Shown in pieces: positions 19,940 to 32,000 of a stretch of DNA of 32,000 nt. The translations under genes were made by a program, and so were the position numbers. A model generated the notes under the pieces. The model had not been told where the DNA came from and did not search any database. It saw nothing but the letters and a program-made list of their open reading frames with translations. Position 1 is the stretch's first letter; each line of letters starts with the position of its first letter. The stretch comes from Kangiellaceae bacterium. Lineage in GTDB: Bacteria; Pseudomonadota; Gammaproteobacteria; Enterobacterales; Kangiellaceae. The DNA is taken from positions 1-32,000 of the forward strand of contig JADGFG010000017.1 in the NCBI GenBank assembly GCA_016743995.1. Reading direction: 5' to 3'.

Positions 19940-20968
19940 TCAGGGAATCAGTAAATCAATTTTCTTTTTTCTGCCTTTGCGCCAGATAACAAGATGTAGA
20001 CGATCACCTGACTTAAGGCTCTTAATCGATTTCATCAACCTGTTCAGTGAACTTTTGCTATCAAAACGATTACCATCAATGCTCAGAATAATATCACCAC
20101 CAAGTATAAAGGGCTCATCCTCGATCATGGCGTGAATCGTTCCACCTTGTAAGCCAGCCTTAAATGCAAGCGAGCCAGAAGCCACCTTTTGTATCAGCGC
20201 TCCAGTATCCTGGGGTAGTTGAAATGCATCTGCCAACTCTGGTCCCATGGCAGATACCACCATCCCGGACCAGAAATGGCCACGACTTAATAAAAGCTCT
20301 TTTACCGTTTCACTAGTTACGGTAAAACCCAATCCTTCTGAGCCCCCGGAATGAGATTGAATATGCGACGCAATTCCAATAATTTCTCCAGCCATATTAA
20401 ATAGCGGACCACCCGAGTTTCCCGGATTAATTGCCGCATCAGTTTGAAAAAACTCTGCCATCGGTGCGGCGGGCCTTGAACCTACGGGATGTTTTCCGCT
20501 AATGTAACCAACAGTCAGAGTTTTAATCAAGCCTTGTGGTGCGCCTATCACAAAGACTTTCTCTCCAATCTGTACTTTGTTCGAATCTCCTAATTGAGCG
20601 GGCTTAACATTTTCGGGTAAAGCATCCACTTGAATCATCGCCAGATCGCCCCAGATAATTGATGATAAAACCTTCGCTTTTTTAAACTCACCGGTTTCAA
20701 ATTCCACCTGTAACGCATCTACGGTGTGAACAACATGAGAAGCGGTAATAATGATGCCATCATTGGAAATAATAACACCAGAGCCTAAACCATTTGGAGT
20801 GGTAACAACACGAGTAGTATTACCCATCACTTCATTTTCAAAGGTGTGTAAAGTAACCACACTTGGTAGCAATTTTTTATAAAGCGCAGGTAACGGGTTA
20901 TTTTCAAAAGCCTGGGTTAAAGAATGGTAAAATAGTCCGATAATCAGCAGGCCAATTTTTGTGTTCAT
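19940..20968 (-). CDS. Periplasmic S1C (HtrA/DegS-like) serine protease with a single C-terminal PDZ domain
   Basis: 342 aa. Signal peptide: MNTKIGLLIIGLFYHSLTQA. Catalytic triad context: ITASHVV (His), GDLAMIQV (Asp), GNSGGPLFN (Ser codon 20414-20416). The C-terminal PDZ-like region is ALIQKVASGSLAFKAGLQGG...GDIILSIDG. Confidence 0.88.
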   Translation of the reverse strand: MNTKIGLLIIGLFYHSLTQAFENNPLPALYKKLLPSVVTLHTFENEVMGNTTRVVTTPNGLGSGVIISNDGIIITASHVVHTVDALQVEFETGEFKKAKVLSSIIWGDLAMIQVDALPENVKPAQLGDSNKVQIGEKVFVIGAPQGLIKTLTVGYISGKHPVGSRPAAPMAEFFQTDAAINPGNSGGPLFNMAGEIIGIASHIQSHSGGSEGLGFTVTSETVKELLLSRGHFWSGMVVSAMGPELADAFQLPQDTGALIQKVASGSLAFKAGLQGGTIHAMIEDEPFILGGDIILSIDGNRFDSKSSLNRLMKSIKSLKSGDRLHLVIWRKGRKKKIDLLIP

Positions 20969-21025: not shown

Positions 21026-21475
21026 TCAGGCTTTGTCTTTAGCCAGGATCTCTTTCTCATCGGTTAGTGCTGATACCGGCTTGTCGTAAAATATTGATAG
21101 AGAAATAATAATAAACATTGCCAGATGAACCGCATTAATGCCGTATTTTTGTGTGGTGATCGCATTTGACTCATACAAATTTACTATATGACTAATCACA
21201 TGATTTCCATTACAGCAACTCTCATTTTTTATTGCATCTATCTGATGATAAATGCTCCATAAAAACTGAGCCTGACTTTGCATCATTAAATTATTAATTG
21301 CCGCAAATCCACAATAGATAACAATGGCGACAATTTTCTCTTTTCTTGTCAAAGGCCGGTCTACGTAAATGATACCACCAATAAGTGCCAGATGTACGGT
21401 AATAAATAACGACCAGTGGGTATCCAGACGATTACTCAGCGATAATGCAAGATCCAGTAGTTCATAAGGTGTCAT
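21026..21475 (-). CDS. Hypothetical integral membrane protein (about 3 TM helices)
   Basis: 149-aa ORF with hydrophobic segments (LFITVHLALIGGIIYV, IVAIVIYCGFAAINNLMM, AVHLAMFIIISLSIF). I recognise no family. It starts 24 nt downstream of the preceding gene and ends 57 nt upstream of the protease gene. Confidence 0.55.
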   Translation of the reverse strand: MTPYELLDLALSLSNRLDTHWSLFITVHLALIGGIIYVDRPLTRKEKIVAIVIYCGFAAINNLMMQSQAQFLWSIYHQIDAIKNESCCNGNHVISHIVNLYESNAITTQKYGINAVHLAMFIIISLSIFYDKPVSALTDEKEILAKDKA

Positions 21476-21499: not shown

Positions 21500-21778
21500 C
21501 TATGTTATATGCTTATCAACTGCACTTTCCAATTCAGTTTGAATTTGCGTTTTTAATACTCGGTACATCAGTCCCAGTTTTACCGTAAGTTGAAACTCAT
21601 TTTCAGTGACACAGATCGTTCCGTTCGCCCCTTTTTTTTGAAAACCTAACTGTCTCTCAGACTCCCATTCATAACGAACACCCAGTTTATCTTTTAGTTT
21701 GACGGCTATATGCTCAATTCTATTTCTAATTTCATCAATTGATAAATGATGCGTTCTTTCTATTTTAATCATAGACAT
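21500..21778 (-). CDS. Small PHA_gran_rgn-like protein (family annotated as 'putative polyhydroxyalkanoic acid system protein')
   Basis: 92 aa. The pattern I.IER.H.L..DE.R..IE.IA.KL....GV.Y.W......F.K.GA.G...V.......V.LG.M........I..E.E.A..K matches my memory of this roughly 90-aa family. It starts 8 nt after the giant ATPase stop. Confidence 0.6.
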   Translation of the reverse strand: MSMIKIERTHHLSIDEIRNRIEHIAVKLKDKLGVRYEWESERQLGFQKKGANGTICVTENEFQLTVKLGLMYRVLKTQIQTELESAVDKHIT

Positions 21779-21786
21779 AAGTGTTA

Positions 21787-24700
21787 CTAACTCTCAGGGT
21801 CCTGCTTTGGTTGATGGGACGATTTCTTCTGCCTGCCAGGCTCGACTAATTTTGTCTGCCTGGAAATCAGCTCAAGCTTCTCATTAATATCCTGAATTTT
21901 CTGATGTGTTCCCAGGTCAAGGTCAAGCTTTCCATCCATTAGCCGGATCAACGGGTAAAAAGTTGTTTCAAAGACTTCCTTTATCTGGACCATTAACTGC
22001 TTACTCAGTTCCCCGGGCTCTTCATTATTTTGTAAATTATTATTCTGCTGTCCCCATTTATCAGCAAGATTTTCAATCGCCTCAACAATCAATGGCAGTG
22101 AATTTTTCTGGTCATTAACCGCTGACTTTACCGATTCCTTTTCATCAGCTACCAGCTGCCGACTGTCCCTCCAGCTACCAAGGGTAGACACCAGGTCATT
22201 TAACTGCCCTACAATCTGACGACCAGTATCCGCTTCATCGCCACCCATGGCTTTATTCCTGGTAAAATCCTTCTTAATTTCTTGCCAGCGTCGCTGTTTT
22301 TTCTCTGACAAGCAGCCTCTCATCTCGGCAAGCTTTAATAAATTGGCTTCTGCGCCGTTAGTTAAAAGCTGCGACTCTCCCTGATAATGGTCATCTACTA
22401 ACCGATTTAATTCTTCGTCTGTCATTATGGCCGAAACTTTTTCAGACATTTTATTCATGTTTCTATAGGAACCCTGCAACTTGAACGCGGGTTCAGTCCT
22501 ATACCGATCATCCTGTGCGCTAGATGCGATATACTGTTTGTTCACAGAAGATACCGTATGCTGAATAACTTTTAACTTCTGCAATATCGCCACAATTTCC
22601 TTTATTTCAGCGCCACTATACTGATGACTGAACTCTGTTGTAGCAACGGTTTTTCCCTCAGACATTTCAATGAATTTGTAAAAATCCTGCAAATCTCTGG
22701 TGGCTAACGGTGCCAGCACCTGATTAGACGTGAGAGAATTTTCCAGATAACTCAAGTCAAAAATTGCTTCCTTTCCACCCAGCACATCACCCAGATTATA
22801 AACATCGGCACGATTAGCTAGCATATCGGGAATTTGAAAAACTTCGCCGGTTTCTGTATACGGATTTCCAGCCATAACAACACAGAATTTTTTACCGCGC
22901 ATATCATAAGTTTTTGTACGCCCTTTCCAGATCCCCTCAATTCTACGAGTACCATCACATAGCGATATAAATTTTTGCAAAAACTCACTATTTGTATGCT
23001 GAATATCATCCAGATACAACATGACATTATTACCCATTTCAAGTGCCAGGTTCAGCTTTTCCAGCTCTTGTTTTGATGCACTATTATCTGCCTGCTGCGG
23101 GTCAACTGATGTGACAGAATGCCCAATAACAGGACAATTTATTTTCATAAAAATCAGTCCCAGCCGGTCCGCAACATATTCCATCAAGGTTGTTTTTCCG
23201 TAACCGGGTGGAGATATCATTAATAATAACCCCATTAAATCAGTTCGCTTTTTCGCACCAGCGGTTCCAATCTGTTTTGCCAGATTATCACCTATCAAAG
23301 ACAGATAAACTTCGTTAATCAGACGATTTCGTACAAATGAAGCCAATGGCTTTGCTTTAAACTCGCTAATTCTTAGCGTTTCTCGTTGTTCGCTGATAAA
23401 AAGCTGTCTGACTGACAGGTAGTTCTCAAAAGCTGGGACGACTTCTCTGGCATGGTATTGATTAGCTCGTAAAAATTCATCGAGCTGAACAATAAGGGCC
23501 TGACCTTTTAAACGCGAATGTTCTCCAATCAAACCTTCAATCTTTAACTGAATATCCACTTCCCTGTCAGTTCTGCTGATTCGTTGCTCTGAGTTTAAAA
23601 TACCAATTGCCTCACCAACAAAACTGATATATTCATTTTTATTTTGTGAATTGATGTAGGCCCTGATCCATTTTTCAGCAATGGACCATCGTTTTCCAAT
23701 CTGTCCCTTAATATCATCAAGAGATCGCTGATAATCACGCCAGACAACTTTTGACTCCAGATAAACTTTAAAATCTTCACATAATCGGCGAGCATATTTA
23801 GAAGTCGAAAAACTGATTATATCTTGCGATAACTCCTCTGATAAATATTCACTGGCACTGACTATAACGTGCTCTTTAATTTCCATCTTATTTTCAATAA
23901 CAAACTCAGACATATCCTGTCTGATTTCATCTGCTAAAAGTTTTTTTGCACTCGAATCAAAAAAGACCTCTGACATTTTCGCTGAAGTTTTTGCTCTAAG
24001 TTGCCAGAGTTCCTGGATATTACCCTGCTGACGATTAGCCCAGTAAACCGTTGCAAAACCTCTGGCCAGCGGAGAAAATTTAAATACGCCAGCCAGCTCA
24101 TAAACCGGTACCAGCTTTTTTAATATGAGCGCCGCATCATGGTCATGAATGCCTTTTTCATAACCTTCACGATATCTTGGCGCTGCATAATCAACAACTA
24201 ACCGATTAAGTAGTCGACTATCAGCAACAGCGTCTATCAATTGACGCCAGCTTAAACCGTCCTGATTACCTTGCGCCGCATTGATAATATTATAGGCCAG
24301 ATACTCTGAACGATAAATTGATGTGGACTCAGAAGGAAGCAACATATTCCAGTAGTCTTTATATTGCAAAAGCCGCTTATCGTTAACCGTTTCAGTATAA
24401 TCAGTACCCGACAATCGAATCGTTAACGCTTCATCTCTGGGCAGAATGGTCAGGTCAAGCTCTTGTCTGTTCACTGAAAATTTATGCCTTGGACCTAATT
24501 TAATGACCTGCCCATCATCTTCATAAAGATCACTTTTGTCTCTTAATGCTCTTAATGATTGTTCTTTAATTGCTTTTAAGCGTGCATCCAGATCTTCTGA
24601 CTTAACACTATCATCAAGTTCCTTCAGATGAACAATAATCTCACGAACTTTATTAATTAACGGGTCTGCCGCAAAGAAAGTATTCAGCTCATCTTGTTCG

Positions 24701-27114
24701 GAAAAACGTTTCACTCTTTTTTCAATACTTTGCAAAATTCGGCTGCCAGCATCATCCAGAGATTGTGCTTTCCTTTGTCTTGCCTCAATTAAAGATTGTT
24801 TATGCTCTTCAAAAGTTTCAAATATTTCTTCTCTTTTATTAATAATATCGCTGATAAAATCATCATAATCACTGAACTCACCTTCTAACTCATCCAACTG
24901 AACTAAAAGCCTTGAAACTTGTTCGTCACATTTATCAGGCGTAGCAGACAATCCCAACGCATTATGAATACTCTGATTAAGCAACTTTAACCTGGCAGAA
25001 AACTGAGCCGTTGCTTCGGATTTTCCCATGTTCTTTTTTTGATGTTCCAGTTTTGCACGCTGCTGATTTAACCTGGCATATAACTCAGACACCTCATCAA
25101 CAATCCTGGTTTGCAATGTCGCATCTTCAACTTTTAACATGGTCATCACTTCAGAGATTAAATCCATTCCCTGTGACATACTGGACAATGCTTCCAGATA
25201 CTGTTTTAAATCCAGGTTGGTTTTACATTGACTACTTTCAGATTCAACACGCTCCAGCTCTTTGTAGTAACTTTTTAACGCTGATTCAGAGGCCAGAAAT
25301 TCAACAGTTTTTTGATTAAGTAGTTCTTCTTCCTTCTGTATTTCCTGATCAAGCGTTTCAATTTCCGCTATATCGATATATCGATATTCCTTAATCGTTA
25401 ATAAATGACCTCGATGTTTTCTTATTCGGCTTAATGCATCAACAAATTCCTGGGGAGTATGCCAGCTATCAGGCTCAATCAAACGAATTATTTCTCGCTG
25501 AGTTGCTTTTGATTCTGTTAAAGCTTTTGAAGACTGATTACGAATGCTCTCAACTTTTTCGTATTCATCGATTACTGATTCAGCGGTCTGTGCAATTTTT
25601 TTAATCAGCTTTGAAGTATCACTCAGCTCGGTTGAATCCAGCCAGAAATAGCTATCAAAAATTTTCTCGCAGGATTGACTCAGTTGATGATAATGTTTTG
25701 CAGACACATCGTTTGTAGAAATATTTTTTGATATATCATAGAGTTCAGAAATTCCCCTCACCAGATCCGCATTACCAATTTTTCCATAAAAACTTTGTGA
25801 AGCTGGCTGTGAGCTTGCATACAGATCAGAAAAATAAGGGGTTTGCCATATTTGTATGGGGTGCACTCGAGCCGGCTCTTCATCAGCATAAAACAAAATC
25901 ATACGTCCATCTTCATAGAAACCAAAGCCATGGCCAAAAAGTGGGTTCTGTAATGTTTTTTCAATAATGTTATACGGATAGAAAGCAACAACATTTGTTT
26001 CTGGTTGATAAAACAGGTACAAAACATCTTCGCCATTGGGGGAACGCATTGTTCGTTTATAAACAAGTCCCTCCAGCTCATCATCAAAAGATTTATACTC
26101 GCCACTCGTCAGATAGTAGCCACCCGGAAAAATAATACCATGGCCTTCTGGCAATTGAACACAGGCATCGCCAATGGCATCAATTCTTACAACAGTTTCC
26201 GTCATACGATTGAAAATGAGATAGCGGTATTTTTCTTCCTGATAGGGTTTAATCTTTAACAAAACCAATTGTTCTAAATCAGCATAATAAAACTCCGCAT
26301 CATCAATCGACTGATTACTTTCCTCAACAGATTCGGAATAGATCCCTTTACCAACATTGGTATTATTTTCAATTTTAATGGTGATATCGCCACGTAACGT
26401 ATCAACAAAAAGTGTATCCAGTATATTAATATGAGGGTTTCGACCATCGATAACATCGTCGCGCTGACATTGAGTCCATTCAAAATCATGACTGGCCGGT
26501 AAACGAATATCTCTTTCTCCACGATTATCGATATAATCTATTCGCTTACCATCTGAGGAAACCTCCCAACGAAAAACTCTGATATCCGTCAGCTTTCTTC
26601 CTGTTTGAAAAGATGCCAGTAATCGGCCGTCTTTTAAAACCAACTGAGAAAGTGAAGTATCCTTATAATAAGCATAGAGCTCCTGAAAGTCCGTATGAAA
26701 ACGTGAATCGGACAGAAACGAGTCTTCTAACGCAACCGAATGCAATTCATATTGGCCTTCGCTTTCTTTCAACTGATAGAGTGATAAGACATCTGTCAGT
26801 TTCGTTTCTTTTTTCAGACCAATGTAAACATTGTAACCAAACAGAACATAATCGCCGACAATCACCAGATCCTGAGCCTGACAGTTATTTTCTGTTCGCA
26901 GACGCATTCTACCGAGAACTTCCATCTCGGTATTACCAAACTCCTGTCGTCGCGCTGTATTTAATTCACTAGTTAACTCATTCAGCAAACTGCCCTGTTC
27001 AGATAAACGCTGGCAGATAATTTCATAAGCACCGCCTTCAGCGACTGCTTTTTCCACAATTGAATTTTTTTCTGTCTGTTCTGTCACGTTAAAGTCCCTG
27101 AAGAAGATCGACAC
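21787..27114 (-). CDS. Giant (about 1775 aa) single-AAA+ protein: beta-rich N-terminal region, long helical/coiled-coil middle, MoxR/dynein-like (AAA_5-type) ATPase module, helical C-terminal tail
   Basis: Uninterrupted 5.3-kb ORF. Walker A MISPPGYGKTT is encoded at 23188-23220 (P-loop 23188-23214). Walker B VMLYLDDIQH is at 22996-23025. This is followed by FCVVMAGNPYTETGEVFQIPDMLANRADVYNLGD, a MoxR/midasin-like NP...G...P..L.NR block. I found no second P-loop. Residues about 60-450 are rich in short beta-like segments with aromatic/Gly turns. Residues about 450-1290 are E/K/Q/L-rich heptad-like sequence. The start is uncertain: the GTG at 27114 lacks an SD, while the in-frame GTG at 27087 is preceded by AGGGA. 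Confidence 0.8.
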   Translation of the reverse strand: MSIFFRDFNVTEQTEKNSIVEKAVAEGGAYEIICQRLSEQGSLLNELTSELNTARRQEFGNTEMEVLGRMRLRTENNCQAQDLVIVGDYVLFGYNVYIGLKKETKLTDVLSLYQLKESEGQYELHSVALEDSFLSDSRFHTDFQELYAYYKDTSLSQLVLKDGRLLASFQTGRKLTDIRVFRWEVSSDGKRIDYIDNRGERDIRLPASHDFEWTQCQRDDVIDGRNPHINILDTLFVDTLRGDITIKIENNTNVGKGIYSESVEESNQSIDDAEFYYADLEQLVLLKIKPYQEEKYRYLIFNRMTETVVRIDAIGDACVQLPEGHGIIFPGGYYLTSGEYKSFDDELEGLVYKRTMRSPNGEDVLYLFYQPETNVVAFYPYNIIEKTLQNPLFGHGFGFYEDGRMILFYADEEPARVHPIQIWQTPYFSDLYASSQPASQSFYGKIGNADLVRGISELYDISKNISTNDVSAKHYHQLSQSCEKIFDSYFWLDSTELSDTSKLIKKIAQTAESVIDEYEKVESIRNQSSKALTESKATQREIIRLIEPDSWHTPQEFVDALSRIRKHRGHLLTIKEYRYIDIAEIETLDQEIQKEEELLNQKTVEFLASESALKSYYKELERVESESSQCKTNLDLKQYLEALSSMSQGMDLISEVMTMLKVEDATLQTRIVDEVSELYARLNQQRAKLEHQKKNMGKSEATAQFSARLKLLNQSIHNALGLSATPDKCDEQVSRLLVQLDELEGEFSDYDDFISDIINKREEIFETFEEHKQSLIEARQRKAQSLDDAGSRILQSIEKRVKRFSEQDELNTFFAADPLINKVREIIVHLKELDDSVKSEDLDARLKAIKEQSLRALRDKSDLYEDDGQVIKLGPRHKFSVNRQELDLTILPRDEALTIRLSGTDYTETVNDKRLLQYKDYWNMLLPSESTSIYRSEYLAYNIINAAQGNQDGLSWRQLIDAVADSRLLNRLVVDYAAPRYREGYEKGIHDHDAALILKKLVPVYELAGVFKFSPLARGFATVYWANRQQGNIQELWQLRAKTSAKMSEVFFDSSAKKLLADEIRQDMSEFVIENKMEIKEHVIVSASEYLSEELSQDIISFSTSKYARRLCEDFKVYLESKVVWRDYQRSLDDIKGQIGKRWSIAEKWIRAYINSQNKNEYISFVGEAIGILNSEQRISRTDREVDIQLKIEGLIGEHSRLKGQALIVQLDEFLRANQYHAREVVPAFENYLSVRQLFISEQRETLRISEFKAKPLASFVRNRLINEVYLSLIGDNLAKQIGTAGAKKRTDLMGLLLMISPPGYGKTTLMEYVADRLGLIFMKINCPVIGHSVTSVDPQQADNSASKQELEKLNLALEMGNNVMLYLDDIQHTNSEFLQKFISLCDGTRRIEGIWKGRTKTYDMRGKKFCVVMAGNPYTETGEVFQIPDMLANRADVYNLGDVLGGKEAIFDLSYLENSLTSNQVLAPLATRDLQDFYKFIEMSEGKTVATTEFSHQYSGAEIKEIVAILQKLKVIQHTVSSVNKQYIASSAQDDRYRTEPAFKLQGSYRNMNKMSEKVSAIMTDEELNRLVDDHYQGESQLLTNGAEANLLKLAEMRGCLSEKKQRRWQEIKKDFTRNKAMGGDEADTGRQIVGQLNDLVSTLGSWRDSRQLVADEKESVKSAVNDQKNSLPLIVEAIENLADKWGQQNNNLQNNEEPGELSKQLMVQIKEVFETTFYPLIRLMDGKLDLDLGTHQKIQDINEKLELISRQTKLVEPGRQKKSSHQPKQDPES

Positions 27115-27244: not shown

Positions 27245-29290
27245 TTATGCTTCGTCTTTATCGGCGTTAGAAATTGTTTTAGGCGCAGATTTATCTCCAC
27301 CCAACAGTTTCTCCATCAGCGCCTGAACAACCGGACTCTTTTCAATAAAACCACTGACCGCGTTTCCTGCCCCCATGCCTTTCGCCAGTTTATCGAAATA
27401 ATCTCCTTGTCCAGTGACAATATCAACATTCGCACTCTTAAGTGCTGAGGCAAGGACTTCCGCCTGATCACCAGATATTTCTTTATTCGCTTCTATAGAA
27501 GCAAGCACTTCTTTCAGGTTATATTCAAGGTTCAGTTTAAATTCTTCAAAACTACGGGATTCTTTATCCATATTATTCATTGCTGCAAATTTGTCGACTA
27601 ACGCATCCGCTTCAGCTTTACCTTTTTCTCGAAGAACCTCCGCTTCATTCACGCCTTTTTCTTTAATCGCTGTCGCCTCAGCAATACCTTGTTCTTGTGT
27701 TACATGCGCTTTGCTAAGACCAATTTCTTTTTCTGCGACCGCTTCAGCTCTTGCCATTTCTTCATTACCGCGCGCTTCAGCCGTCAATTTTTCTTCTAAG
27801 ACTTTTGCTTCGGCCAATCCTTCTTTTTCCAGGGATACCGCTTTAGCTTCTTGTACTCTTGCCTCAGCAATGCCTTCTTTTTCAAACGCGTCGGCTTTTG
27901 CTTCCATCACTCGGGCTTGTGCAATACCTTCTGCCGCATCAGTTGCCTGTTGACCTTCTGCAATTTTCTTATCTGCTTCTGCTTTTTTAGTCGCCGCTTC
28001 AAGATCTGCCTGAGCGAGTACGTTTATTTCACGAGCCCTGAATTGCGCTTTTTGTTCATCAGCTTCTGCACGTTTAACCGTTTGCACCAGCTCTTCCTGA
28101 GCTAAAGCTTCGGCCCCTAGAACAACCACCTGCTTCTTTCGATCAGCTTCTGAAACTTCCTTAACTTCCTTAATTCTCTCTTCTTCTTCAGCAACTTTCT
28201 TTTCTACCGCAATACGCTCACTGATCGTTTGTGCAATAATCTTCTTTTCTTCTTCAAGTGCTTTGTCTTTATCAATGATCGAAAGCTCAACTTCTCTTTC
28301 TCTGTTCACTTCTTCCATTTCTTTTGCGCGAATCACCCTTTCTTTTTCAATAACGACAGCGCGTTCTCTGTTTTGCTCTGCAATTTCAATCTGGCGTAAT
28401 TTGACCTGATCTCTAATCTCAAGTTGTTCTTCGGTTTCAATTCTTGCCTGTTCATATTTCAGCCTTTCTTCTTCCTGTACTTTTTTTGTTTCAGCTTCTT
28501 CTCTTGCCCTGACCGTCTCAATTTCTCTTTTCTGCTTTGATTCTGCATCTATCTGCTGTCTTTCCAGCGATAACATTGACTCGCGAGTTTCCACATTTTT
28601 CTTAGTGATCGCCAGAGACTCATCTTTTTCAAGACGATTAGTTTCAATATTTTGCGTCGCAGTAATTTCGGTTATTTTTCGAATACCAACAGAATCCAGA
28701 ATGTTAGTCGGGTCAAGTTGTGCTTTCGGTGTTTGTTCCAGATAATCAATGGCGACATCTTCCAGAATATAGCCATTCAAATCGTCTCCAATCACTTCAA
28801 TAATTTTTTCCCTGAACTGAATTCTGTTTTCAAAAAGATCCAGAAACAACATGTTTTTACCCACCGTTTTTAGTGCTTCTGAAAATTTTGCGTTAAACAG
28901 TTCGTTAACAGCAATTTTGTCAGATGCGCGGTCGACACCAATTGACTTGGCCACCCGGAGTACGTCATCACGGGTTTCATTCACTCTTAAATAAAATGCA
29001 ACGGTAATATCTGCCCGAAGGTTATCTTCACAGATAAGCCCATCATTTCCGCGACGATCAATTTCCAGTGTAATCAGAGAGATTTTCATCACTTCCATTT
29101 TATGAATGACCGGTATTACCATGCCGCCGGTAAAATGAACTTTGGGTTTGGCTGACATGTCATTAACAATGAGCGCATATCCCTGAGGTACCTTTTTATA
29201 GAAAGCGCTAAACATAAACGCGATCCCCATAATAATTACCAGTATAATTCCGCCAGTTGTAATTATTGGCATTAAAATTCCGCTATCCAT
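27245..29290 (-). CDS. yqiK: Flotillin-family SPFH/Band-7 protein (YqiK-like)
   Basis: 681 aa. The N-terminal TM helix is PIITTGGIILVIIMGIAFMFSAF. An SPFH-like region follows (VPQGYALIVN...GGMVIPVIHK...LRADITVAFYLRV), then a very long E/A/K/R-rich coiled coil with periodic repeats. This is the architecture of E. coli YqiK and bacterial flotillins. GGAG lies 9 nt upstream of the ATG. Confidence 0.88.
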   Translation of the reverse strand: MDSGILMPIITTGGIILVIIMGIAFMFSAFYKKVPQGYALIVNDMSAKPKVHFTGGMVIPVIHKMEVMKISLITLEIDRRGNDGLICEDNLRADITVAFYLRVNETRDDVLRVAKSIGVDRASDKIAVNELFNAKFSEALKTVGKNMLFLDLFENRIQFREKIIEVIGDDLNGYILEDVAIDYLEQTPKAQLDPTNILDSVGIRKITEITATQNIETNRLEKDESLAITKKNVETRESMLSLERQQIDAESKQKREIETVRAREEAETKKVQEEERLKYEQARIETEEQLEIRDQVKLRQIEIAEQNRERAVVIEKERVIRAKEMEEVNREREVELSIIDKDKALEEEKKIIAQTISERIAVEKKVAEEEERIKEVKEVSEADRKKQVVVLGAEALAQEELVQTVKRAEADEQKAQFRAREINVLAQADLEAATKKAEADKKIAEGQQATDAAEGIAQARVMEAKADAFEKEGIAEARVQEAKAVSLEKEGLAEAKVLEEKLTAEARGNEEMARAEAVAEKEIGLSKAHVTQEQGIAEATAIKEKGVNEAEVLREKGKAEADALVDKFAAMNNMDKESRSFEEFKLNLEYNLKEVLASIEANKEISGDQAEVLASALKSANVDIVTGQGDYFDKLAKGMGAGNAVSGFIEKSPVVQALMEKLLGGDKSAPKTISNADKDEA

Positions 29291-29447: not shown

Positions 29448-30098
29448 TTATTCCAGTTGCTGATTAAATTCTTTTTCACTGACAATCTGATAAGTCCTAT
29501 CAACCTGATGTTCAATAATCACCGCAGTATCTCCTGCCTTATAGGTATCATTTTTACCATGAGTTCTAACTTTAACAATAAGACTGGCACCATGATGCAA
29601 ACATTCAGCCTCTCCAAATGCTTTATCGACTCGACTGCTTCTGATTTTGCAGGTTCGGCCTATCAGCGATTTTGATACTGGTTCACGGTTGATCGTCTTA
29701 AAAAGACCTTTCGTTGGTTTAATCATGACCGCAGTCAGCGGGATCGCAATTAGAAAACTCACAATCGCAATGCCCAGCTCAATCGCCAGTTGCAATAAAG
29801 AAATAAGATCAGGGAACTCAGGAAGAAGTAAGCTCATAAAATAGCAGATAAGCCAGCTATTCAACACTAACAGGCTAATAACGAGGGTAACGGGGACGCC
29901 AGTGAGGCCCAGTGTGACTAATAATCCAACAATGCCGCCCAGCTGACTGACATCGGTATCCACGTCAATATCCAGGTCAAACATATCAAAGTCAAATAGT
30001 CCCAGCATAACCATAAACCAGTAACCCACCACAACAACCAGTGCGGTACTATAAATGGCAGTAGGAAAACTGCTAATATTCAGTAGAAAAGTATCCAT
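29448..30098 (-). CDS. yqiJ: YqiJ/NfeD-like inner-membrane protein (short NfeD form: TM helices plus C-terminal OB-fold-like domain, no protease domain)
   Basis: The track ORF starts at a TTG (30107). I prefer the ATG at 30098 (MDTFLLN...). The protein has multiple TM helices and an acidic loop (DFDMFDLDIDVDTD). Its C-terminus LIGRTCKIRSS.VDKAFGEAECLHHGASLIVKVRT....YKAGDTAVIIEH resembles the NfeD OB-fold. It sits immediately upstream of the flotillin gene, as in E. coli yqiJK. Confidence 0.7.
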   Translation of the reverse strand: MDTFLLNISSFPTAIYSTALVVVVGYWFMVMLGLFDFDMFDLDIDVDTDVSQLGGIVGLLVTLGLTGVPVTLVISLLVLNSWLICYFMSLLLPEFPDLISLLQLAIELGIAIVSFLIAIPLTAVMIKPTKGLFKTINREPVSKSLIGRTCKIRSSRVDKAFGEAECLHHGASLIVKVRTHGKNDTYKAGDTAVIIEHQVDRTYQIVSEKEFNQQLE

Positions 30099-30132
30099 TA
30101 TAAACAAGCCCTGTTATCTATTTTTCATTATT

Positions 30133-30693
30133 TTATTTCTTTGTTTTTCGTTGTCTTTTTCGCACAAGCAATCTGGCCGTAACGATACCAGAAGCAAAGC
30201 CAAAGATATGACCTTCAAAGCTTACCCAGGAACGAAAGTCCAGTAAACTGAAAGCTAATCCACCATAAAGAAAAACCGTCACCAGTGCCAGAATAATGTT
30301 CTTAATATTCCGGTTAAAATAAGCCCAGCCCAACAAAAAACCAAAATACCCCATGACAAGTCCAGAGGCACCCACATGAAAAGCGCTTCTGGCAAATATC
30401 CAGACCATTATTCCGGTCAACAACATAATGGCAAGCGTAGCTTCTTTGCCTTTATTGGTAGCACACACCAGAAAACCCAATACAATCAGAGGGATAGTGT
30501 TTGCAATCAAATGATAAAGACCACCATGCAAAAAATGCATCGTCACAACGCCGTAAAGATGACCAAGGTCTCTGGGTAATAAACCATATTGGTTGAGATT
30601 ATGGTTAAGCGCAATATTAATCAATTCTATTAACCAGATTAATACAACAAAAGCCAACAACAGCTTAAAGTCTTTAATGGATTGACTGTTCAA
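30133..30693 (-). CDS. Rhomboid-family intramembrane serine protease
   Basis: 186 aa with about 6 TM helices. It carries the TM2 HxxxN motif (YHLIAN), the catalytic GxSG (HVGASGLVMGY; Ser codon 30364-30366) and the TM6 His (EGHIFGFASG). It has a TTG start preceded by AAGGA, overlapping the upstream gene stop by 4 nt (TTGA). Confidence 0.85.
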   Translation of the reverse strand: MNSQSIKDFKLLLAFVVLIWLIELINIALNHNLNQYGLLPRDLGHLYGVVTMHFLHGGLYHLIANTIPLIVLGFLVCATNKGKEATLAIMLLTGIMVWIFARSAFHVGASGLVMGYFGFLLGWAYFNRNIKNIILALVTVFLYGGLAFSLLDFRSWVSFEGHIFGFASGIVTARLLVRKRQRKTKK

Positions 30694-31022
30694 ATTGAGT
30701 CCTTTTTCATTACCAGATTAATTATCTCTTTAGCGGCCCTCTCTTTTATCGCGAGTTTATCATTCCTGTCAAGCCCATATTGCTGGGCCAGAATAATATA
30801 ATCGTCGGCAGATAGCGAAATCGTTAACCTGGGTCTGATTGGTTTTTTACTCGGCAACCCCAGAATCTGGCGCATTTGATCAGAAGGCGACAAATCATTA
30901 TTAATCGCCAACAGTTTTAATTGTTTTTGAGCCTCAGTAGAAATATCAAAAGCAACCTGAGTTGCCTTGATAGCTTTTTTTTCTTCACTCCACAACTCTG
31001 GCTTTTTTTTGTCTGTGCCCAT
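30690..31022 (-). CDS. Small soluble protein of unknown function; possible tandem ribbon-helix-helix (RHH) DNA-binding protein
   Basis: 110-aa ORF. Its start overlaps the yjfJ-like stop by 1 nt (TAATG) and its stop overlaps the rhomboid start. Two segments show a strand-helix-helix pattern: TQVAFDISTEAQKQLKLLAINNDLSPSDQMRQILGL and PRLTISLSADDYIILAQQYGLDRNDKLAIKERAAKEII. The fold assignment is inference only. Confidence 0.6.
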   Translation of the reverse strand: MGTDKKKPELWSEEKKAIKATQVAFDISTEAQKQLKLLAINNDLSPSDQMRQILGLPSKKPIRPRLTISLSADDYIILAQQYGLDRNDKLAIKERAAKEIINLVMKKDSI

Positions 31023-31728: not shown

Positions 31729-32000
31729 CTATTTAATAAATTCTTCAAGCGCCTGTAAAGTTTCAATTGAGTTGGTTGCCAACGCAATTAACTCCTGAGT
31801 AATGCTTTCAAATTTTGAACCACAACTTAATGCGCCAAAAATAACATAATGCTCATCAACCAGTGCAAAAGAGCTAAGTGGCATCGGCACATTAAGCTCT
31901 AGCAGGTACCGATTAAGTTCTGCTTCTTTTTCAGTCACTATTTCCTGTTGAGTGAAAAGATAAGAAATACATAAAATCTGCGTTGAAGTGACAGTCACAA
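31729..32000 (-). CDS. yjfI: YjfI-like DUF2170 protein (CesT/Tir-chaperone-like fold proposed for this family); N-terminus lies beyond the window edge
   Basis: The C-terminal 89 aa are visible: NRYLLELNVPMPLSSFALVDEHYVIFGALSCGSKFESITQELIALATNSIETLQALEEF. This aligns with remembered E. coli YjfI: NTFLLRNQKIMPLSSVGISSV..EEYYIVFGALSLKSSLEDILLEITSLVDNALDLAEITEEY. It ends 11 nt upstream of yjfJ. The GTG at 31998 in the track is probably internal. Confidence 0.75.
   Translation of the reverse strand, partial: VTVTSTQILCISYLFTQQEIVTEKEAELNRYLLELNVPMPLSSFALVDEHYVIFGALSCGSKFESITQELIALATNSIETLQALEEFIK

Follow-up and report, generated by a model that had tools for sequence, protein, structure and literature searches.

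The window analysed here, a stretch of 32,000 nucleotides (nt) from a Kangiellaceae bacterium (assembly GCA_016743995.1, contig JADGFG010000017.1, positions 1 to 32,000), encodes on its minus strand a giant AAA+ ATPase directly behind a flotillin gene, and the likely role of this ATPase is the subject of the present analysis. In minus-strand order the genes encode DUF2170/YjfI, PspA, a protein of 110 amino acids (aa), rhomboid, YqiJ/DUF1449-like, flotillin, the ATPase, PHA_gran_rgn, a 149-aa membrane protein and a DegP-like protease, as follows.

31729..32000, minus strand: 3' part of a DUF2170 (YjfI, CesT/Tir-like) gene, which runs past the window end; the full gene on the source scaffold matches PF09938
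31022..31717, minus strand: PspA/IM30 (ESCRT-III superfamily) gene (Pfam PspA_IM30, E=3.2e-32)
30690..31022, minus strand: open reading frame (ORF) of 110 aa, overlapping with its start the stop of pspA and followed by the rhomboid gene
30133..30693, minus strand: Rhomboid-family intramembrane protease gene (Pfam Rhomboid, E=3.3e-18), a variable operon member
29448..30107, minus strand: gene for a YqiJ/DUF1449-like (NfeD-like) membrane protein of 216-219 aa (E=2e-13 to a Hymenobacter 'DUF1449 family protein' in the same operon position)
27245..29290, minus strand: flotillin/SPFH gene, 681 aa, directly upstream of the ATPase gene; N-terminal transmembrane (TM) helix, Band_7 and a long Glu/Ala-rich coiled coil
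21787..27114, minus strand: giant ATPase ORF, stop codon included; 1775 codons from the first GTG (GTG 27114), uninterrupted
21500..21778, minus strand: PHA_gran_rgn (TIGR02610) gene, 92 aa (Pfam E=5.9e-23); starts 8 nt after the ATPase stop
21026-21475, minus strand: gene for a 149-aa membrane protein, downstream of the operon
19940-20968, minus strand: gene for a DegP-like trypsin/PDZ protease, downstream of the operon (0.8 kb from the ATPase gene)

A first-pass annotation of this DNA had delimited the ATPase ORF as 1775 aa without a TM helix, and both statements hold. An AGGGA-like ribosome-binding site lies 8-9 nt upstream of GTG 27087, and none precedes GTG 27114. Since a protein in public data that is identical to the window ATPase is called with 1766 aa, GTG 27087 is likely the true start, giving a product of this length. 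No TM helix is predicted because the maximum 19-residue Kyte-Doolittle mean is only 1.28, and the ATPase is a soluble, cytoplasmic protein. The scaffold that carries the window stems from a marine metagenome. The closest named relatives of the ATPase are from Aliikangiella (Kangiellaceae), at ~70% identity, and its highest identity to any other database sequence is 72%.

The protein had also been called an orphan, which is wrong since Pfam recognises two of its regions. DUF3686 (PF12458) matches residues 44-490 with E=1.6e-192 and 640 bits (cut-off 25), the whole profile being covered, and DUF7902 (PF25472) matches residues 612-694 with E=1.4e-22; in addition, AAA_5 and AAA match residues 1297-1420 weakly (AAA_5, E=2e-6). 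The ORF is a full-length, new and metagenomic member of the DUF3686-DUF7902-AAA+ family, which has thousands of homologues. A word-indexed search with the ATPase retrieved 5348 proteins at E<=1e-5, the best 120 of which are all full-length and 53-72% identical, and an exhaustive HMMER search with residues 861-1775 gave 421 clusters (50% identity) at E<=1e-30 and 878 at E<=1e-10. Among 150 listed representatives, 71 have at least 1500 aa (range 1504-2036, median 1685), and full-length homologues of 1600-2036 aa keep the same register as the window ATPase. A scan with one genome per species showed relatives in at least 582 species, belonging to the Gamma-, Beta- and Zetaproteobacteria and to Longimicrobium, and tblastn of plasmid records adds Streptomyces, Nonomuraea, Deinococcus, Hymenobacter, Vibrio, Photobacterium, Proteus and the Pseudomonas megaplasmid pQBR103. 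No homologue was found among 50,697 phage records. The family is catalogued and experimentally uncharacterised, and its members are labelled by NCBI as 'DNA repair ATPase', 'AAA family ATPase' or 'MoxR-like ATPase'.

Neighbouring genes were counted over 80 related loci, to which all counts of loci refer unless others are named; numbers with an L denote these and further loci.

Flotillin orthologue directly upstream of the ATPase gene: 76/80 loci; the remaining 4 begin at a contig end (76/76 informative)
YqiJ-like: 68/80 loci
PspA: 41/80 loci
DUF2170: 40/80 loci
Rhomboid: 19/80 loci, often directly after the ATPase gene and overlapping its stop
Single-HKD phospholipase-D-superfamily (PLD) gene downstream: up to 33 loci
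PHA_gran_rgn, 149-aa protein and DegP-like protease: 0/80 loci

The position of the ATPase gene directly after a flotillin gene, which had been noticed in the first-pass annotation, is therefore shared by every informative locus. Streptomyces, Hymenobacter, Deinococcus and pQBR103 likewise have the YqiJ-flotillin-ATPase triad or, failing that, the flotillin-ATPase pair, and flotillin lies upstream too in L089, L093, L094 and L095 (32-36% full-length BLASTP identity) and in L092 (43%). In about half of the loci, including the window, the triad is placed within a YjfI(CesT/Tir-like)-PspA envelope-stress operon. Overall, the flotillin-adjacent family spans Proteobacteria, Actinomycetota, Bacteroidota, Deinococcota and Gemmatimonadota. 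The adjacency of ATPase and flotillin is near-obligatory across several phyla, and flotillin, not PspA, is the universal partner.

Within the ATPase, SPPGYGKTT forms residues 1301-1309 (nt 23188-23214) and is the sole P-loop of the protein, LYLDDIQH forms residues 1366-1373 (nt 22996-23019), and AGNPYTETGEVFQIPDMLANRAD forms residues 1415-1437. All three are located where the first-pass annotation had put them, with the single P-loop ~1300 residues into the chain. Conservation of the motifs was counted over 137 diverse representatives and the query (n=138), which are 33-80% identical in this region.

22780..23379, minus strand: AAA+ core (residues 1246-1445), from Pfam AAA_5 and AAA, strands in the AlphaFold2 model and Foldseek
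K1307, Walker A (GYGKTT, residues 1304-1309): 138/138
D1369, Walker B (D1369-D1370 at nt 23005-23010, minus strand): 137/138
D1370, Walker B: 133/138
N1417, sensor 1 (nt 22864-22866, minus strand): 136/138
R1435, candidate Arg finger (nt 22810-22812, minus strand): 135/138
R1551, candidate sensor 2: 132/138

Since the motifs are nearly invariant in these 138 sequences, the concern that they might be degenerate across homologues does not apply. Judged by its sequence, the AAA+ module is apparently catalytically competent. The Walker B motif reads D-D, not the usual D-E, in essentially all family members.

The module had been taken as MoxR/dynein-like rather than classical AAA, and this view is weakly supported: there is a weak Foldseek lead to NorQ and CbbQ, but PF00004 equals AAA_5 in score and a single module is present. 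AAA_5 scores 28.2-28.7 bits (cut-off 22) and PF00004 23.5-29.3 bits (cut-off 21.2), both profiles match in 37/37 homologues, and the E-values of the two are about 1e-6 to 4e-8. The PF00004 alignment spans only profile positions 1-94 of 131, short of the whole-domain match, second region of homology included, that is expected of the classical AAA clade (Vps4, FtsH, p97). Sequence and profile searches of the PDB match the AAA region to p97, NVL and RuvB, over no more than ~35-50 residues at the P-loop. The top Foldseek match is NorQ (E=8e-4), followed by ClpA, more NorQ chains, RuvB, CbbQ (5e-3), MCM and p97, all of them weak matches with low TM-scores. The model has a beta-hairpin at residues 1391-1404, between helix 3 and strand 4, with moderate local confidence; as modelled, it fits the pre-sensor-1-hairpin superclade (MoxR, RuvB, MCM). 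Residues 1327-1344 are modelled as a loop with no clear helix-2 insert. In this part of the module the predicted local distance difference test score (pLDDT) is only 51-90. It appears that this is a divergent AAA+ module whose nearest affinity, a weak one, is to MoxR/AAA_5. The ATPase is not a member of the MoxR family: its size is fivefold that of MoxR proteins, its accessory domains are of other kinds, and no neighbour in the window or in the annotated related loci was seen to be a VWA partner. In the ATPase itself, Pfam found no MIT and no peptidase or protease domain.

The regions outside the AAA+ core were studied with two AlphaFold2 models, of residues 1-870 (mean pLDDT 85) and 861-1775 (mean pLDDT 79), built on a 97-sequence alignment. 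According to these models, the domain order is short N-terminal helices, a beta-propeller, a helical rod, a compact helical domain, one AAA+ module and a variable tail. The identities given below are means to the window ATPase over 31 homologues; on this scale the AAA+ core, with 84%, is conserved best.

25645..26985, minus strand: DUF3686 region (residues 44-490), from Pfam, modelled as a propeller after N-terminal helices; propeller identity 66%
24520..25824, minus strand: helical rod (residues 431-865), from the model, with helices of up to ~57 residues; identity 58%
25033..25281, minus strand: DUF7902 inside the helical rod (residues 612-694), from the Pfam match given above
23380..24519, minus strand: compact, mostly helical middle domain (residues 866-1245), from the model; identity 46%
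24136-24153, minus strand: motif G988-x-H990-D991-x-D993 in the middle domain, conserved in 87-92 of 92 sequences, query included
22195..22779, minus strand: lid and conserved post-AAA helical region (residues 1446-1640), from conservation and modelled helices; lid identity 66%
21790..22194, minus strand: variable C-terminal tail (residues 1641-1775), helical, pLDDT <60; identity 22%

The N-terminal helices are formed by residues 10-59, and beta-strands are spread over residues 65-424. This agrees with the ~400-aa, possibly propeller-like strand region that had been read from the sequence, and Foldseek against the PDB relates the beta domain to Ski8, TLE6, IFT-A subunits, the prolyl oligopeptidase propeller, paraoxonase and the clathrin terminal domain, with E down to 5e-6. 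The ~800 aa of heptad-rich helix reported to follow it are borne out as a helical rod for residues ~431-865 only; residues ~890-1240 make up a separate compact domain, with pLDDT >90 and with a few short strands besides its helices. This middle domain has no relative by Pfam, by PDB profile search or by Foldseek (no non-AAA match in the 50 listed). Its G-[VI]-H-D-x-D motif sits at a helix start in the high-confidence part of the model and may be a metal-binding or partner-binding site. A reading of the motif as an HD domain was dropped, as neither Pfam nor Foldseek backs it. Behind the AAA+ core, the post-AAA region includes the conserved block RTEPxFKLQGSYRN, which holds R1551. The chain is helical after residue ~1640, as had been described for the C-terminal tail, although with low confidence, and many homologues stop near residue 1650.

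The flotillin of the window shares 49% identity with a 'flotillin family protein' from Streptomyces, and Band_7 matches with E=3.6e-10 when residues 1-230 are scanned alone. A full-length Pfam scan of the 681-aa protein gave no match, which is probably an artefact of composition bias, the HMMER bias correction being triggered by the Glu/Ala-rich coiled coil. This effect probably also explains why the flotillin partners in L084 and L085 are annotated as 'hypothetical'. Because a single N-terminal TM helix is followed by KK (positive-inside rule), the SPFH and coiled-coil parts are predicted from the sequence to be cytoplasmic. A promoter and terminator scan was uninformative: it gave no enrichment, and no terminator turned up between the flotillin and ATPase genes.

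The other members of the operon are less constant. The 110-aa ORF has no Pfam match, and its homologues adjoin pspA in L027, L060, L064, L076 and L087; to judge from the look of its sequence, it may be a small DNA-binding or regulatory protein. The single-HKD PLD gene lies just after the ATPase or rhomboid gene (e.g. L004, 15865-16590), in a number of loci that is possibly inflated by off-frame ORFs, and none was noted in the stretch of the window that was examined. The small gene behind the ATPase had been presented as a conserved partner. Its 8-nt gap is real; however, PHA_gran_rgn is missing from all 80 related loci and is a clade-specific accessory. It follows the ATPase in the closest clade only, namely in Aliikangiella (L082) and in a Psychromonas-like metagenome-assembled genome (L088), with gaps of 1-9 nt, and is absent from Pleionea (L087). 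In these genomes PHA_gran_rgn is coupled to the flotillin operon rather than to polyhydroxyalkanoate (PHA) genes.

Two loci have unusual surroundings. On pQBR103 of P. fluorescens SBW25 (L086, 37-13241), a merged operon encodes YjfI, PspA, rhomboid, DUF2491, DUF350, DUF1190, a glutathionylspermidine-synthase-like protein, YqiJ-like, SPFH and the ATPase, and thereby unites the polyamine-type and flotillin-type PspA operons, which are separate in the literature. In Pleionea sediminis (L087, 1-11223), genes for a Ser/Thr kinase, a PP2C phosphatase and an FHA protein stand directly upstream of rhomboid, YqiJ, flotillin and ATPase, which hints at phospho-regulation in the Pleionea lineage.

The best explanation of this locus, and one to which we give an even chance of being right, is that the protein is the dedicated cytoplasmic ATPase of the conserved YqiJ-flotillin-ATPase triad and that it remodels the SPFH scaffold. 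Since it is almost always encoded right after the flotillin gene, it is a good candidate for a scaffold-remodelling motor. One possible scheme is as follows. The AAA+ modules would oligomerise into a ring, probably a hexamer, and the propeller, carried on the long helical arm, would dock on the cytoplasmic flotillin/YqiJ assembly. ATP hydrolysis would then drive the remodelling, disassembly or turnover of the SPFH scaffold. In loci with a pspA gene, the ATPase may in addition act on PspA polymers that are recruited to the membrane patch of the scaffold. In such a scheme it would correspond in function, though not by homology, to Vps4 in its action on ESCRT-III or to FtsH with HflK/C. Flotillin is universal and PspA is not; therefore, flotillin is more likely the direct target.

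Several points weigh against this scaffold-remodelling explanation. Gene adjacency cannot separate action on the scaffold from action on clients held by the scaffold, and no experimental work on the DUF3686-DUF7902-AAA+ family was found in the literature. The D-D form of Walker B may mean slow or regulated hydrolysis, and the model is only moderately confident around the P-loop (pLDDT 51-66). One exception to the synteny was found: the ATPase of L091 (GCA_031454105.1, 5001-9830), which is 37% identical over the C-terminal region and 32% by full-length BLASTP, has neither a flotillin nor a YqiJ gene within 5 kb. As regards PspA, it is absent from half of the loci and so cannot be a universal substrate. 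A wider proposal, which we consider conceivable but doubtful, is that the family is the missing ATP-driven disassembler or recycler of flotillin (SPFH) cages and, where co-encoded, of PspA/ESCRT-III polymers. It would form a ring of six subunits, each of 200 kDa and with a propeller at the tip of its helical arm, on an AAA+ scaffold that is not related to Vps4, and the middle domain with its invariant G-x-H-D-x-D would supply a second activity.

The flotillin synteny supports equally well a client-directed unfoldase or extractase, in which flotillin would recruit or corral the ATPase, and the latter would pull damaged or misassembled membrane or peripheral proteins from the microdomain and possibly pass them to rhomboid, DegP-like or PLD enzymes. 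The pairing of an SPFH cage with an AAA+ enzyme is established for HflK/C-FtsH, rhomboid is in or adjoins the operon in 19/80 loci, a PLD/HKD gene is downstream in up to 33, and the DegP-like gene lies 0.8 kb downstream in the window. However, these rhomboid, PLD and DegP-like genes are variable, the last being found in 0/80 loci, and Pfam detects no protease domain in the ATPase; an extractase seems unlikely to us. It is also thinkable that PspA/ESCRT-III polymers are the main substrate, which would make the protein a bacterial counterpart of Vps4 with flotillin only as its membrane platform. PspA and DUF2170 are co-operonic with the ATPase here and in about half of the loci, B. subtilis SPFH proteins recruit PspA (as cited in the literature), and bacteria appear to lack a Vps4-like ATPase (PMC7619361). 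We regard a PspA disassemblase as decidedly improbable, however, with PspA missing in 39/80 loci where flotillin is essentially always present, with no MIT-like domain detected by Pfam, and with an AAA+ module that is not clearly of the classical Vps4 clade.

Three further explanations place the ATPase outside scaffold or polymer turnover. The top Foldseek matches, NorQ and CbbQ, and the AAA_5 match would suit a MoxR-type maturation chaperone for cofactor insertion or partner activation (cf. NorQ/NorD, CbbQ/CbbO, RavA/ViaA); the NP...R spacing after sensor 1 also recalls what we take to be a MoxR signature, as a lead only. A VWA partner is nevertheless lacking among the neighbours in any annotated locus, the ATPase has five times the MoxR size and PF00004 scores equal those of AAA_5, and there is very little to be expected of this explanation. 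Defence systems often contain a giant ATPase with a sensor propeller, and a phage-defence or abortive-infection module that senses membrane perturbation could be suggested by the copies on megaplasmids such as pQBR103, by a WYL regulator adjoining one locus and by the single-HKD PLD genes adjoining many. Against this, the core of the operon keeps its make-up from phylum to phylum, and the genes seen to flank it are metabolic or otherwise ordinary, not defence genes. A defence role, already a slim prospect, was set aside because the ATPase, flotillin, YqiJ-like and PHA_gran_rgn proteins have no PADLOC-DB match and phage records hold no homologue. The database name, finally, implies a DNA-repair ATPase of the SMC, Rad50 or RuvB kind, for which the Pfam and NCBI label and a weak P-loop similarity to RuvB can be cited. 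This similarity is confined to ~50 residues around the P-loop, however, and RuvB_N reaches only 21-24 bits (cut-off 27) and NCBIfam RuvB only 21 bits (cut-off 282). Neither a nuclease nor a DNA-binding domain was found, membrane proteins and membrane-stress genes make up the neighbourhood, and no paper found in the literature backs the name. With RuvB-type scores far below cut-off and a context of membrane stress, the 'DNA repair' label is rejected, and a repair function is scarcely credible.

Returning to scaffold remodelling, the idea is sensible and has already been published as a prediction. A survey of PSP systems (mSystems 2024, preprint 2020) describes computationally an operon that includes the propeller/coiled-coil AAA+ ATPase, together with the CesT/Tir (YjfI, DUF2170)-PspA pair and a YqiJ/YuaF membrane protein, sometimes with a PLD hydrolase (PMC11237479). 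In that survey, abbreviated operons of flotillin, YqiJ and sometimes the ATPase are more widespread, and a chaperone-like, ATP-dependent remodelling of a membrane or complex is proposed (PMC11237479). A survey of SPFH proteins in P. aeruginosa PA14 and a study of Shewanella SO1376/SO1377 deal with flotillin loci without the family ATPase. Since the flotillin-ATPase link was published computationally in 2024, the value of the present work is confirmation and refinement, not discovery. What is added is that the invariance of the motifs is quantified, that flotillin is shown as the universal partner, that a conserved novel middle domain is described and that the 'DNA repair' label is found to be without support. 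Two questions about bacterial membranes are open, namely how flotillin/SPFH assemblies are dynamically assembled and cleared, and how PspA polymers are regulated given that, according to a 2025 review, a Vps4-like ATPase is apparently absent in bacteria (PMC7619361). A conserved, flotillin-adjacent AAA+ ATPase is an obvious candidate for both.

Compared with known systems, the window shows no essential difference from the published PSP operon (PMC11237479), which has the same domain content and the same partners (DUF2170, PspA, YqiJ-like, flotillin and sometimes PLD). It differs in a rhomboid gene upstream of yqiJ, in the extra 110-aa ORF and in PHA_gran_rgn, which is joined to the 3' end of the operon in the closest clade only. 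The MoxR family (NorQ, CbbQ, RavA; AAA_5) gives the AAA+ module its best, though weak, structural matches; there is also an AAA_5 match, and a beta-hairpin before strand 4 is predicted with moderate local confidence. MoxR proteins, however, are ~300 aa long and have VWA-domain partners, whereas the window ATPase has 1775 aa with a propeller, a rod and a helical domain, no VWA neighbour and a D-D Walker B. Dynein and midasin (Rea1) are likewise large, mechanoenzyme-like polypeptides with an AAA_5-type match and long helical elements, but they carry six concatenated AAA modules per chain; because the window ATPase has one P-loop module, it is not dynein- or midasin-like in its organisation.

With Vps4-ESCRT-III, and with PspF-PspA, the family has in common an AAA+ ATPase that is genetically coupled, in half of its loci, to PspA, a polymer of the ESCRT-III superfamily. 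Unlike Vps4, it has no MIT domain and no clear classical-clade signature, and its universal partner is flotillin; unlike PspF, it is not a bacterial enhancer-binding protein (bEBP). As in HflK/C-FtsH, an AAA+ machine and a scaffold of the SPFH family are paired at the inner membrane. FtsH is a membrane-anchored AAA protease of the classical clade inside a periplasmic cage, whereas the window ATPase is soluble and without a protease domain, and the body of its flotillin is predicted to be cytoplasmic. In contrast to HflK/C-FtsH, the flotillin and ATPase genes of the window are strictly adjacent.

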